From: Candidatus Electrothrix sp. GW3-4
GTDB lineage: Bacteria; Desulfobacterota; Desulfobulbia; Desulfobulbales; Desulfobulbaceae
NCBI RefSeq assembly: GCF_037902255.1
Contig: NZ_CP147990.1
Location: 4,320,001 to 4,352,000, forward strand
Length of the DNA: 32,000 bases
Direction of reading: 5' to 3'
Numbering within the stretch: position 1 is the first letter of the stretch; every line of letters starts with the position of its first letter. Of the stretch, positions 18,293 through 26,384 are shown in pieces. The notes under the pieces were generated by a model. The model made no database searches. It was not told the DNA's origin and was given only the letters and a program-made list of their open reading frames with translations. Made by a program: the position numbers and the translations under genes.

Positions 18293-19816
18293 ATGAAGGA
18301 TCAAGCACATTCCGCGAATCTCGGCACAGTGGTCTCGGTACGCGGCAGTGTCGTGGATGTACGGTTTGAGGAGCAGTTACCGCCGATCTATTCGATGCTG
18401 CGCGCGGGGGTGGACCAACAGATCGTCATTGAAGTGTTGGCGCAGCGGGATGCGCATCATGTGCGCGGGATTGCCTTGACGCCCACGCAAGGTCTTGCGC
18501 GCGGGATGGCGGTGGAGGACACAGGCGGGCCGTTGAAGGCCCCGGTCGGCAAGGGAATTCTCTCGCGCATGTTCGACGTTTTCGGCAATAGCATCGATCA
18601 CCGGCCAGCGCCGACAGATATCCAATGGCGCACCGTCCATCGAGCCCCGCCAGCCTTGGGGCAGCGTTCCACCAAGTCCGAGATCTTCGAGACGGGGATC
18701 AAGATCATCGACGTGCTGGTGCCGCTCGAACGCGGCGGCAAAGCGGGCCTGTTCGGCGGGGCGGGCGTGGGCAAGACGATATTGCTCACTGAAATGATTC
18801 ACAACATGATCGGGCAGCAGAAGGGTGTCAGCATTTTTTGCGGGATCGGCGAACGATCTCGTGAAGGAGAGGAACTGTATCGCGACATGAAAACGGCGGG
18901 CGTGTTGCAGAACATGGTGATGGTGTTCGGGCAAATGGATGAGCCGCCAGGCAGCCGGTTTCGCGTGGGCCATGCAGCACTGACCATGGCTGAGTATTTC
19001 CGGGATGACGAGCATCGCGACGTGCTGCTGCTGATCGATAATATTTTCCGCTTTATCCAGGCTGGTATGGAAATGTCCGGACTGATGGGGCAAATGCCGT
19101 CGCGCTTGGGCTATCAGCCCACGATGGGCACTGAGTTGGCGGGGCTGGAGGAACGCATCGCCAACACCGACACCGGGGCCATCACCTCTATCCAGGCGGT
19201 GTATGTGCCAGCGGACGATTTGACCGACCCGGCGGCAGTGCACACCTTTTCCCATCTCTCGGCATCCATCGTGCTTTCGCGCAAACGGGCTGGCGAGGGT
19301 CTTTATCCAGCCATCGACCCGTTGGCATCCAGTTCCAAAATGGCTACGCCGGGTATCGTTGGCCAGCGGCATTACGATTTGGCCCGGGAAATCCGGCGAA
19401 CGCTCGCCCAATACGCAGAACTCAAAGACATCATTGCCATGCTGGGTCTGGAACAACTGTCGCCGGAGGACCGCAACGTGGTCACACGGGCCCGCCGCTT
19501 GGAACGTTTTCTCACCCAGCCCTTTTTCACGACCGAGCAGTTCACGGGCCTCACAGGAAAGCTCGTCAGTCTCCAGGACGCGTTGGACGGCTGCGAACGA
19601 ATCCTGCGTGATGAATTCAAAGACTCCTCAGAAAGATCCCTCTACATGATCGGGGCGATTGACGAACTAAAGGGGAAAACGAAAACCGAACCTGCGTCCC
19701 GGCCCGAGACGCAGGGCGACCCGCAGCCCGTTGCCGATTCCCAACCCGATCCGAAATCCGATTTGAAACCAACGCCGGAGCTCGAACATGCAGCAGCCGA
19801 CACGCATGAATCTTAA
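18293..19816 (+). CDS. atpD: N-type ATPase beta subunit
   Basis: ORF 18053..19816. I prefer the ATG at 18293 (AGGAGA 6 nt upstream), giving [25 protein letters not shown]. The P-loop is GGAGVGKT and the DELSEED-region equivalent is present. First gene of the N-ATPase order atpDCQRBEFAG. Carries a roughly 45-aa Pro/acidic C-terminal tail. Confidence 0.92.
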
Positions 19817-20195
19817 AATCCTTCTACCGTTCCGTATTTTTATTGAAAAAGCGGGAGTTTTGCGCATCGTTGCGGAGACCTGCGAGGGCTCGTTCGGACT
19901 TTTGCCGCGCCGACTGGACTGCGTTGCGGCACTGGCGCCGGGGATTCTGACCTACGAACAGGAAGGGGAGGACGAGGTTTACTTGGCCATTGATGAAGGG
20001 GTGCTGGTCAAGACCGGCCTGGATGTGCTCGTCTCCGTACGGCACGCCATAAGCGGAACAGACCTTGGCCAACTGCGTGAAGCAGTGGACCGGGAGTTTC
20101 TGCACCTGAACGAACGGGAGCAGAGCGTCCGTTCGGTGATGGCGAAAATAGAGAGCGGTTTCATCCGTCGTTTAGCGGAGTTTCAGCATGAGTGA
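19806..20195 (+). CDS. atpC: N-type ATPase epsilon subunit
   Basis: ORF 19788..20195. The start is at 19806 (MNLKILLP...) or 19788; both overlap the end of atpD. Size and position fit epsilon. Confidence 0.8.
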
Positions 20196-20535
20196 AAAAT
20201 CAGACAGCAAGCGTGCGCAAGAGGAGACAGTGTTTAGTCGGGAAGTTGGCACAAAGGCGGCACGCAAGCTCAAGGCGCAGCGTAACGCCACGCCGGGTGT
20301 CTGGTTTGGCCTGGGCATGATGGGACTGGTCGGCTGGTCGGTGGCGGTGCCGACGCTGCTCGGTGCAGCGCTTGGTCTCTGGTTGGATAACCAGCATCCG
20401 GGCCAGTATTCCTGGACACTGGCACTGTTAATGGCCGGACTTGTGATCGGCTGTTTCAATGCCTGGATTTGGATTGCCAAAGAAGACCGGGCCATGCGAG
20501 AGGAACAGGAGGATAAGGAGGATAATGATGACTGA
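20188..20535 (+). CDS. atpQ: N-ATPase accessory membrane protein AtpQ (ATPase_gene1 / AtpZ-AtpI-like)
   Basis: 115 aa with two TM segments (VWFGLGMMGLVGWSVAVPTLLGAALGLWLD; WTLALLMAGLVIGCFNAWIW). The ATG overlaps the atpC stop. Sits at the third position of the N-ATPase operon. Confidence 0.8.
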   Translation: MSEKSDSKRAQEETVFSREVGTKAARKLKAQRNATPGVWFGLGMMGLVGWSVAVPTLLGAALGLWLDNQHPGQYSWTLALLMAGLVIGCFNAWIWIAKEDRAMREEQEDKEDNDD

Positions 20536-20890
20536 AACGTTAACCTTGATGCTGACATTGATGCCAGTCTGGGTGACCGGAGGAATGATCGGAGTAATGT
20601 TTTTCGGCGGACTCTGGTGGACAGTGCAAAAGGCGCTTTCATCCACACGACCGGCACTGTGGTTTTTCAGCAGCTGGCTGCTGCGGATGAGCCTTGCCCT
20701 GACCGGATTTCACCTTGTTGCGGGCGGCCATTGGCAACGGCTACTGATCTGTCTTCTGGGCTTTGTCATGGCACGCCCGGTCGTGACACGGCTGACCCAA
20801 TACAGCGTCCCTCCGAAACCCTGTATGGCGAGTCTCGGAGAGACTCGCGTACCTGATGCGGAGACACAGGAGGTCAAGGATGCGCCTTAG
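20525..20890 (+). CDS. atpR: N-ATPase accessory membrane protein AtpR
   Basis: ORF 20459..20890. I prefer the ATG at 20525 (MMTETLTLML...), which overlaps the atpQ stop. Hydrophobic protein with a membrane-embedded Arg (SWLLRMSLALTGF). Sits at the fourth position of the operon. Confidence 0.75.
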   Translation: MMTETLTLMLTLMPVWVTGGMIGVMFFGGLWWTVQKALSSTRPALWFFSSWLLRMSLALTGFHLVAGGHWQRLLICLLGFVMARPVVTRLTQYSVPPKPCMASLGETRVPDAETQEVKDAP

Positions 20891-24890: not shown

Positions 24891-25052
24891 AGTTTGACAG
24901 CCAGTACCCCACCTTTTGAATAATCGACACTTTCAGCACTGTATCAGTACGGTAAGAATGCCGAAAAATGGGCTTGCAGGTCAACTTCGAGTGTCGATTA
25001 TATTTGGTTAGCTGCTTAATTACTTTTTAAAATGCAAAAAAAGGATGGCCTT

Positions 25053-25445
25053 ATGCAAGGATCAATTACGTTGAATGAATTGGGCATATTCATCATTTTT
25101 GCTTTAATTGTCGTGGCCGGTGGATACGCCATCGTGACGCTGAAAAACATTAATGCTTTGATTAAAGTGGCTTCAGCCACGCTGCAAAAAAACCAAGGCC
25201 ATTTAAATCAAATCATTCCCAATATTAATGAGATTTCAGAAAATACCGCAAAAATCAGCGAAGAGATCAAAAAAAGCGTTGATGAGGCGGGTGAGGCCGT
25301 CAGAACCATTTCTCATGAAACCGCCGATACAGTCTTGACGATCAATGAGACCGCTGATTATCTGGCAAAATATGCCCTGGTGATCGGCGAAATTGCCAAG
25401 ACGATTGTCAATATGTTTTCATCGAATGAGAAAGCTATGAAATAA
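25053..25445 (+). CDS. DUF948-like membrane-anchored coiled-coil protein
   Basis: ORF 25032..25445; the start is at 25032 or 25053. An N-terminal TM segment (LGIFIIFALIVVAGGYAIV) is followed by LKNINALIKVASATLQKNQGHLNQIIPNINEISENTAKISEEI. This architecture matches DUF948 proteins, which I recall pairing with YtxH genes in Firmicutes. Confidence 0.7.
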   Translation: MQGSITLNELGIFIIFALIVVAGGYAIVTLKNINALIKVASATLQKNQGHLNQIIPNINEISENTAKISEEIKKSVDEAGEAVRTISHETADTVLTINETADYLAKYALVIGEIAKTIVNMFSSNEKAMK

Positions 25446-25484
25446 CGCATAAGGCGCTGATACGCCTGAACACGAGGAAACGTC

Positions 25485-26384
25485 ATGAGCGAGACTACGG
25501 CGAGTCTGCGCCGAAAGATCAGTAGTGCTGGAGATCTCCAATCCGTCGTGCGCACGATGAAGTCCTTGGCCGCTTCGAGCATCGGACAATACGAGAAATC
25601 GTTGAGCGCGTTGGCCGACTACAATCGCACGGTGGAGCTGGGATTGAGTGTCTGTTTCCGTGGTGCCAGTTCGGCGGCATTTATGGTAACCGGAGAGACA
25701 CAACAAACGGATACGGGTGAGCTGAGCGCGGTCGTGTTCGGGTCCGACCAGGGATTGGTGGGCCAATTTAATGACGTGGTGGCCGATTACGCCATGAAGA
25801 CCCTCGCAACGCTGCCCGGCAGACCTCAGGTATGGGCTGTCGGCGAACGTGTTCATGCACGCTTGACGGACGCAGGCCTGCCTTCGGTCGGCCTCTTCGG
25901 GGTGCCGAATTCCGTCAAGGCCATCACCCCGCTCATCGACCGAATACTGGTGGAAAGCGAGGCAGGTCGCAGCTCGAACGAGGGTGTTGCACCGCTTTAC
26001 CTTTTCTACAACCGCCCAGGATCAGGCCCGGTTTATGCGCCGGTCAGTCAACGACTGCTGCCTTTGGATGAAAACTGGCGGCTCAAGCTCGCCGAGCTTC
26101 CCTGGCCGACGGGAAACTTGCCCGAAATCATGGGTGACAGCGGCACGACTCTGCGTGCACTCATCCGCGAATATCTTTTCGTTTCGCTCTTCCGGGCCTG
26201 CGCCGAATCCCTTGCAAGCGAGAACGCGAGCCGTCTGGCCGCCATGCAGCGTGCTGACAAAAATATCGACGAATTGCTGGAAGACCTCAATAGAACGTTC
26301 CATAGTTTGCGCCAGAGCGGCATCGACGAGGAATTGTTCGACGTCATCTCGGGCTTTGAATCGCTGAGTGTCGAGGAGCAATGA
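25485..26384 (+). CDS. atpG: N-type ATPase gamma subunit
   Basis: 299 aa. The N-terminal LRRKISSAGDLQSVVRTMKSLAASS and C-terminal ENASRLAAMQRADKNIDELLEDL...IDEELFDVISG helices are typical of gamma. Last gene of the atpDCQRBEFAG order. Confidence 0.9.
   Translation: MSETTASLRRKISSAGDLQSVVRTMKSLAASSIGQYEKSLSALADYNRTVELGLSVCFRGASSAAFMVTGETQQTDTGELSAVVFGSDQGLVGQFNDVVADYAMKTLATLPGRPQVWAVGERVHARLTDAGLPSVGLFGVPNSVKAITPLIDRILVESEAGRSSNEGVAPLYLFYNRPGSGPVYAPVSQRLLPLDENWRLKLAELPWPTGNLPEIMGDSGTTLRALIREYLFVSLFRACAESLASENASRLAAMQRADKNIDELLEDLNRTFHSLRQSGIDEELFDVISGFESLSVEEQ

Follow-up and report, generated by a model that had tools for sequence, protein, structure and literature searches.

The genome of the marine cable bacterium Candidatus Electrothrix sp. 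GW3-4 (family Desulfobulbaceae; assembly GCF_037902255.1, contig NZ_CP147990.1) contains an N-type ATPase operon with three genes in addition to its canonical set. They were found in a 32,000-nucleotide (nt) stretch of the contig (positions 4,320,001 to 4,352,000), hereafter the window: pmp3 is located between atpF and atpA, and a pair of ytxH-family and DUF948-like genes lies between atpA and atpG. Comparison with related operons indicates that the three extras are not one phenomenon. The pmp3 gene is a resident conserved throughout a clade of operons, whereas ytxH-DUF948 is an independent module in a hypervariable slot. The pmp3-bearing operon clade and the catalogue of genes inserted in such operons appear to be new, judging from the literature searched, while the N-ATPase operon and insertions into it as such are already known.

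The operon consists of 12 co-directional open reading frames on the + strand, at positions 18293-26384 of the window, in the order atpD-C-Q-R-B-E-F-pmp3-A-ytxH-DUF948-G. All coordinates without a locus prefix are positions within the window, and comparison loci are cited by L numbers. The genes, and the one intergenic spacer discussed below, are as follows.

18293-19816, + strand: atpD, N-ATPase beta subunit (TIGR03305, 882.5 bits against a cut-off of 752)
19788-20195, + strand: atpC, epsilon subunit (TIGR03166, 164.5 bits against 100.1; NF004871, 205 bits)
20188-20535, + strand: atpQ (gene 1), membrane protein (PF09527; TIGR02230, 139.8 bits against 46.7)
20528-20890, + strand: atpR, hallmark N-ATPase membrane protein (PF12966, 98.5 bits; TIGR03165, 96.7 bits)
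20880-21581, + strand: atpB, a subunit (TIGR03306, 377.5 bits against 302.1)
21606-21890, + strand: atpE, c subunit (TIGR03322, 164.4 bits against 130.85)
21895-22677, + strand: atpF, long b subunit with a delta-like C-terminus (TIGR03321, 334.7 bits against 224.7)
22674-22853, + strand: pmp3/yqaE, 59-amino acid (aa) two-helix proteolipid (PF01679, 79.2 bits against 22.9)
22856-24436, + strand: atpA, N-ATPase alpha subunit (TIGR03324, 930.3 bits against 750.5)
24528-24890, + strand: ytxH-family gene, 120 aa, the first gene of the module (PF12732, 56.7 bits against 37.5)
24891-25052, + strand: ytxH-DUF948 spacer with a conserved long-range inverted repeat
25053-25445, + strand: DUF948-like gene, 130 aa, the second gene of the module (PF06103, 28.5 bits, E = 1.7e-6)
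25485-26384, + strand: atpG, gamma subunit, the last gene of the operon (TIGR03323, 414.9 bits against 282.35)

All nine atp products scored above the cut-offs of the N-type "alternate F1F0" NCBIfam models, each beating the housekeeping F-type model, and seven N-specific models were exceeded (TIGR03305, 03166, 03306, 03322, 03321, 03324, and 03323 for atpD, C, B, E, F, A, and G, respectively). The atpH (delta) gene was not found within 18293-26384, and no F-type ATPase operon was present inside the 32-kb window. AtpF is 260 aa long, with weak delta/OSCP matches at residues ~154-253. According to hydropathy, AtpQ has two hydrophobic segments, and Arg53 and Arg83 of AtpR, whose start was taken from the L001 gene call, lie in or beside hydrophobic segments. 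An upstream ATG at 18053 would give AtpD a long N-terminal extension outside the coverage of the family model; gene calls on the identical contigs L001 and L002 place the atpD start at the equivalent of 18293. The c subunit contains Glu31 in helix 1 (ALAEG, residues 28-32) and the motif ESTAIY at residues 64-69; Glu together with ESTxxY is the Na+-binding signature of N-ATPase c subunits (PMC2881411). The window operon is an N-type ATPase operon, predicted to be Na+-translocating, with all Na+ ligands present in its c subunit. The N-ATPase call made in the first-pass annotation from the beta-first gene order, the presence of atpQ and atpR, the absence of atpH, and a long b subunit with a delta-like C-terminus was verified on each of these points.

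The N-ATPase operon was first described in Methanosarcina barkeri. Its canonical form, atpDCQRBEFAG, has nine genes (Dibrova, Galperin & Mulkidjanian 2010, PMC2881411), and against this count the window operon indeed has three extras of the small membrane-protein type at two positions. It shares with the canonical operon the order of the nine genes, AtpQ and AtpR, the lack of atpH, the delta-like C-terminus of the b subunit, and the Glu and ESTxxY ligands of the c subunit (PMC2881411). Unlike it, the downstream, F1-encoding half is interrupted by three genes, and the atpA/atpG overlap, usually of the 4-nt ATGA type in N-ATPase operons, is lost. The atpG gene has its own Shine-Dalgarno sequence, GAGGAA. 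Overlaps of 8-29 nt join atpD to atpC (29 nt), atpC to atpQ, atpQ to atpR, and atpR to atpB, and atpE and atpF are 4 nt apart. The stop codon of atpF and the start of pmp3 overlap (ATGA), and pmp3 ends 2 nt ahead of the atpA ATG. The earlier description of the spacing was therefore correct for the atpD-to-atpB overlaps and for both sides of pmp3. The spacers around the ytxH-DUF948 insert are 91, 162, and 39 nt long.

The Pmp3 match covers positions 1-48 of the 49 in the PF01679 profile, and hydropathy peaks lie at residues 11-29 and 36-54. In Pfam family, size (52-60 aa), and two-helix topology, the protein resembles Pmp3/RCI2/YqaE (UPF0057) proteins of yeast, plants, and bacteria, a family linked in yeast and plants to Na+ tolerance and to modulation of the membrane potential. 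To our knowledge, its known members are encoded by stand-alone genes. In the literature searched, no link of Pmp3 to any rotary ATPase operon was found, nor of Pmp3/YqaE to the N-ATPase, which agrees with the earlier remark that the inserted families were not known to have been described as N-ATPase operon members. Small hydrophobic proteins encoded in F-type operons, AtpI/UncI and AtpZ, are thought to aid assembly or ion homeostasis and are not catalytic. Unlike the internal and clade-restricted pmp3, their genes stand at the operon start, are unrelated in sequence, and are widespread.

The contexts of Pmp3 homologues were read at decreasing identity to the window copy. At 97%, 95%, and 91% identity, all contexts read were atpF-pmp3-atpA of N-ATPase operons. 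At 86% identity, one of two copies lay within the atpF-atpA junction and the other (L097) was stand-alone, as is the second pmp3 copy of GW3-4 itself (77% identical). The copies located in operons were on about a dozen distinct contigs, and the atpF-atpA position of pmp3 is common to L083-L094, L096, and L187. In a tree of concatenated AtpB, E, F, A, and G, the pmp3-bearing operons group as a single clade (100% bootstrap), the support being 58% in a tree of AtpA only. Within this clade, identity to the window drops to about 88% for AtpA, 80% for AtpF, and 75-78% for AtpG, and the Pmp3 sequences are 86-97% identical to the window copy, with pairwise ratios of nonsynonymous to synonymous substitution rates (dN/dS) of 0.08-0.34. 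These values indicate that pmp3 has been retained in the clade under purifying selection while the atp genes diverged. The insertions are not unique to this genome, as the first-pass annotation had allowed they might be, since pmp3 is clade-wide and the identical 12-gene order, with different flanking genes, occurs in Ca. Electrothrix rattekaaiensis (GCA_032595675.1). As extra members of the operon, pmp3 recurs clade-wide and ytxH-DUF948 in a few close relatives, but the comparisons gave no evidence that the pmp3, ytxH, or DUF948 product is an ATPase subunit.

One member of this group has no pmp3. L178, whose AtpA is 94.6% identical to that of the window, clusters with the window and L083 at 98-100% bootstrap. 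In the alignment, the pmp3 Shine-Dalgarno sequence and ATG of L178 are joined directly to codon 8 of atpA, and on account of this fusion L178 represents a secondary, clean deletion of a 200-nt pmp3 cassette. A second deletion, of about 37 nt, occurred in the window and removed the atpF TAA stop that is present in L083, L084, L178, and L096. The 3' end of the window atpF now extends through the former spacer to a TGA overlapping the pmp3 ATG. In the relatives, the distance from the atpF stop to the pmp3 start ranges from ~20 to ~390 nt. Since the ancestral stop was lost by deletion, the ATGA coupling is derived in this genome. The close spacing from which co-translation of Pmp3 with the complex had been proposed is thus real here, but it does not extend to the relatives.

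The occurrence of insertions was surveyed in the 80 GTDB species representatives with the closest AtpA (77-86% identity, many phyla) and in the 80 metagenome contigs with the closest AtpF (70-81% identity). An insertion was scored as a junction gap of >150 nt, and the denominators are scorable junctions:

atpA-atpG: 13/71 in GTDB, 3/37 in metagenomes
atpF-atpA: 6/73 in GTDB, 0/44 in metagenomes
atpB-atpE: 2/66 in GTDB, 1/55 in metagenomes
remaining five junctions: one in total in GTDB, none in metagenomes

This distribution shows that both junctions flanking atpA are general insertion sites of N-ATPase operons. None of the 73 GTDB and 44 metagenome scorable atpF-atpA junctions contained pmp3, and neither ytxH nor DUF948 was found in any of the 160 sampled operons outside the pmp3 clade. 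Among the 80 metagenome loci, pmp3 was present in one, L123, in which atpA is not on the contig. There (L123:1181-3702), atpF and pmp3 are followed by remnants of a P-type cation ATPase, and AtpF, AtpB, and AtpE are closest to those of pmp3-less operons outside the clade. In L123, pmp3 was either captured a second time at this junction or transferred by recombination. In L003, a Ca. Caldilinea metagenome-assembled genome, the atpF-atpA junction is occupied by a P-type ATPase gene of the same family, apparently frameshifted.

Several gaps were rejected as insertions. In L013 and L025, atpA is split by frameshifts, and in L028 the true atpF is missing nearby. In L164, AtpF itself is 416 aa long (L164:160-1410), this N-type protein having a repetitive C-terminal tail of ~160 residues rich in Pro, Ala, Lys, and Glu.

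Insertion into an N-ATPase operon is not new per se because one- and two-gene insertions have already been noted in cyanobacteria, with one inserted gene in Acaryochloris marina and two genes in two Cyanothece strains (Dibrova et al. 2010, PMC2881411). The novelty suggested for the inserts in the first-pass annotation consequently holds for pmp3, of which no description in such operons was found in the literature searched, but not for insertion as such. Neither the cargo catalogue nor the pmp3 clade was found in the literature searched.

The second insert has a different history. Its ytxH-family gene starts at the ATG at 24528, 6 nt downstream of a strong AGGAGG, and the L001 gene call likewise gives 120 aa; the product has one transmembrane helix (residues 29-47) followed by a charged helical tail. 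The product of the second gene has one transmembrane helix (residues 10-28) plus a helical domain. Its PF06103 score of 28.5 bits is below the cut-off of 37.2, and among its homologues (70-97% identity) most are annotated with PF06103 and some are named "DUF948 domain-containing protein" by NCBI. These homologues are numerous in Desulfobacterales, and in every locus read ytxH was directly upstream of the DUF948-like gene. A stand-alone ytxH-DUF948 pair (Desulfotignum balticum, L184) adjoins sigma54-type regulators. In Bacillus subtilis, ytxG-ytxH-brxC is a general-stress operon controlled by sigmaB and sigmaH (PMC8113031), and YtxG is the DUF948 protein FacZ, the loss of which leads to aberrant membrane invaginations (PMC10914604). 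As in B. subtilis, the window genes for the DUF948-like and YtxH proteins are adjacent, and their products are small, with one N-terminal helix each, and of types associated with stress. Unlike in B. subtilis, the order is reversed, with ytxH first, brxC is missing, and the pair resides within an ATPase operon; in addition, unlike YtxG/FacZ, the window protein matches DUF948 below the Pfam cut-off, and its host belongs to Desulfobulbaceae.

The pair is located between atpA and atpG in L178, L088, and L187, as in the window. In L181-183, ytxH-DUF948 is followed by an AI-2E transporter gene and a truncated atpG. Among the closest relatives of the window, the atpA-atpG slot is empty in L084-86, contains an AI-2E gene in L083, and contains baeRF3, methyltransferase, and AI-2E genes in L087. 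Since close relatives carry different cargo or none, the content of this slot turns over fast. In the window, L178, and L088, the ytxH-DUF948 spacer retains a 13-bp inverted repeat at 24920-25000, TCGACACT...AGTGTCGA (AATCGACACTTTC ... GAGTGTCGATT). The spacer folds no better than shuffled sequences (z = -0.45). Its length of 162 nt exceeds by ~100 nt that in stand-alone pairs (15-66 nt).

Some further observations concern these loci. The complete cluster at L181:6593-9227, also present in L182 and L183, is ytxH-DUF948-AI-2E-[truncated atpG, 84-132 aa]-PRC barrel-CheB-DUF2254 with a DDE transposase upstream, and resembles the 3' end of an N-ATPase operon that has decayed while its junction cargo survived. 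L178 carries a ~160-nt element with terminal inverted repeats AAGTACCCGACCAAAATTAT...ATAATTTTGGTCGGGTACTT just past the atpA stop (L178:4076-4290) and, between atpB and atpE on the opposite strand, an IS200-type Y1 transposase gene (L178:905-1258).

The base composition of the extras, given as the GC content overall and at third codon positions (GC3), was compared with that of the atp genes and the flanks:

nine atp genes: GC 56-62%, GC3 63-73%
pmp3: GC 44%, GC3 55%
ytxH: GC 45%, GC3 48%
DUF948 gene: GC 40.5%, GC3 47%
flanking host genes: GC 48-50%, GC3 48-60%

As with the canonical N-ATPase operon, the composition suggests a lateral origin, the GC content of the window operon being higher than that of its flanks. 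The immediate neighbours of pmp3 have a GC content of 57-62%. The extras look like host DNA that came to lie inside a laterally acquired, GC-richer operon.

Transcription signals were scanned for in the region 17600-27400. No terminator-like hairpin was found on the + strand between atpD and atpG, and sigma70 promoter-like sites occurred at the level of chance (5 found against 5.0 expected from shuffled sequences), with one weak promoter-like site at 24846-24875. There was no convincing sigma54 site (GG-N10-GC) upstream of ytxH, DUF948, pmp3, or atpD, nor ahead of the ytxH genes of six related loci. The sequence TGGCAGAAAAGTTTTC, conserved downstream of atpA, was rejected as a sigma54 site, since the -12 GC is absent. 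An Rfam scan of 17000-28000 at E <= 1 revealed no structured RNA, the single hit being a chance match to a long non-coding RNA. The results of these scans are compatible with one predicted transcript from atpD to atpG. As the gamma subunit is indispensable, transcription must cross the second insert or restart within it.

The inserted genes of other N-ATPase operons belong to a limited number of families. Recurrent cargo includes a short HPF/S30AE-like protein (12 loci), baeRF3 (5 loci), VIT1 (7 loci), AI-2E-family transporters (6 loci), and DUF2254 (~30 loci, often immediately upstream of atpD); P-type ATPase, PPK2, and PepSY were single cases. In distant N-ATPase operons, the atpA-atpG slot carries HPF-like, baeRF3, DUF2254, or VIT1 genes.

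Particular arrangements of this cargo were also recorded. The HPF/RaiA-like protein (~120-136 aa; PF02482, 32 bits) is encoded between atpA and atpG in unrelated phyla (for example, L003:11695-12081, L015:11684-12055, L036:11657-12022, and L071:11753-12121), and its gene is sometimes preceded by that of a baeRF3 release factor-like protein (L009, L015, L112, and, in the pmp3 clade, L087). Genes of the DUF2254 family (PF10011), which encode membrane proteins, directly precede atpD on the same strand, occupy the atpA-atpG junction, or follow atpG (for example, L018:2917-4272, L055:4392-5747, L020:3045-4361, and L073:11620-12939); DUF2254 looks like an undescribed accessory gene of the N-ATPase system. 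A gene of the VIT1 family, resembling Fe/Mn transporters, is inserted at the atpB-atpE junction, both within a single branch of the pmp3 clade and in an operon unrelated to it (L092:4120-4821, L093:4313-4822, L094:4133-4822, and L054:8004-8840), and in L031 VIT1 is located between atpA and atpG. In L096, an 8.76-Mb genome with a pmp3-type operon, genes for the K+ uptake proteins TrkH and TrkA immediately precede atpD on the same strand, their ends overlapping (L096:1-1637).

In our view, the balance tips slightly towards an N-ATPase operon that accreted host-derived stress genes at the junctions flanking atpA, the products being co-regulated helpers under ion and membrane stress and not stoichiometric subunits. 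The pmp3 gene, with its own ribosome-binding site, entered the atpF-atpA junction once, in the ancestor of a clade of Desulfobulbales/Desulfobacterales type. The ytxH-DUF948 module, a counterpart of Bacillus ytxG-ytxH, landed separately in the atpA-atpG junction. All twelve genes would be read from the operon promoter, as suggested by their location on one strand and by the scans, which gave no detectable sign of a terminator or promoter inside the operon. Induction of the Na+ pump would then always bring production of the small membrane proteins with it and, in this genome, pmp3 would be translationally coupled on both sides. By analogy with its family, Pmp3 could adjust the membrane potential or cation leak during electrogenic Na+ pumping, and the YtxH and DUF948 proteins could shield the membrane, or keep it organised, when it is exposed to that same ionic or osmotic stress. 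The evolutionary account, with pmp3 captured once and ytxH-DUF948 acting as an interchangeable module, is the best-supported part of this explanation, and the functional roles we infer from analogy.

A number of points weigh against it. Co-transcription of the twelve genes is deduced from the sequence, and the 91- and 162-nt spacers around ytxH could hide promoter types beyond simple scans. Almost all N-ATPase operons outside the clade lack pmp3. Any benefit of pmp3 must be dispensable, because L178 lost the gene without visible damage, and the operon copy need not be specific to the pump, because stand-alone pmp3 paralogues exist in the same organisms. The functional step draws on yeast and plant phenotypes of the Pmp3 family, and the comparison sequences are mostly metagenome contigs, many of them without taxonomy.

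Other explanations make different use of the same evidence. The extras might be unrelated passengers that hitch-hike at insertion-tolerant junctions around atpA and have no role in Na+ pumping, which we regard as rather unlikely. The cargo between atpA and atpG is heterogeneous and differs between near-identical operons, the related operon L178 harbours mobile elements (Y1_Tnp and the 160-nt inverted-repeat element, which resembles a miniature inverted-repeat transposable element), the GC content of the extras is host-like and not operon-like, and pmp3 can be lost. However, pmp3 stayed intact through substantial divergence of the operon, with the low dN/dS values given above (0.08-0.34), the same few families (HPF-like, DUF2254, VIT1, AI-2E, and baeRF3) turn up in phylogenetically distant operons, and nearly all of the cargo is membrane-, ion-, or stress-related and not random. 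It is also unlikely that the insertions split the operon, with ytxH-DUF948 bringing a stress-responsive promoter and atpG being expressed either from this promoter or by read-through. The lack of a GG-N10-GC sigma54 site upstream of ytxH, promoter-like sites at chance frequency, and the absence of a + strand terminator after atpA, ytxH, or DUF948 all argue against such a split, and an enzyme to which atpG is indispensable requires some read-through or coordinated expression; on the other hand, the 91-nt and 162-nt spacers are highly conserved among the window, L178, and L088, stand-alone ytxH-DUF948 pairs adjoin sigma54 activators, the weak promoter-like site lies at 24846-24875, and a Shine-Dalgarno sequence of its own replaces the usual overlap of atpG with atpA.

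A closer association of Pmp3 with the enzyme can be imagined in two ways. That Pmp3, possibly together with YtxH and the DUF948 protein, is an accessory subunit or assembly factor of the membrane sector, kept stoichiometric by translational coupling, seems very improbable to us. Outside the clade, pmp3 is missing from all 73 and 44 scorable atpF-atpA junctions of the two samples, the only other case being L123; L178 deleted it precisely and kept all atp genes intact; the tight coupling is confined to this genome, against ~20 to ~390 nt in relatives; paralogues of 77-86% identity stand alone in this or related genomes; and ytxH-DUF948 is swapped for unrelated cargo. In favour of such a role are the location of a two-helix proteolipid gene between the last membrane-sector gene, atpF, and the next head-sector gene, atpA, with an ATGA overlap on one side and a 2-nt gap on the other, the clade-wide conservation of this position under purifying selection, and the finding that L123, a second lineage, also has pmp3 at this junction. 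It is likewise doubtful that Pmp3 is a dedicated partner that tunes or shunts the membrane potential built by the pump or gates a back-leak of cations, in the strongest form through contact with the a/c-ring.

The surroundings of the operon were also inspected. Directly upstream of its 670-nt leader region is an insertion sequence transposase of the IS630 type (16325-17621, - strand, GC 41%), present as two overlapping open reading frames (HTH_32/HTH_23, then DDE_3). Downstream of atpG, on the + strand, there are genes for a PRC-barrel protein (26481-27224), a family that is also found after the atpG remnant in L181-183, for a helical protein of 96 aa, rich in Lys and Glu, that matched no Pfam family (27350-27640), and for a response regulator-PAS-GGDEF-EAL protein (27828-29951).

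N-ATPase operons are less fixed than described, since the junctions flanking atpA serve as landing pads for recurring genes of stress response and ion homeostasis. This suggests a wider island of salt and ion stress genes, laterally mobile, with the N-ATPase at its core. The pmp3 clade, together with the natural deletion variant L178, provides a compact testable system for the function of Pmp3. If Pmp3 does act as a partner of the pump, this would be the first genomic context tying Pmp3/YqaE to a defined ion-motive machine. Cable bacteria span steep ionic, pH, and electrical gradients, and such equipment may bear on their physiology.

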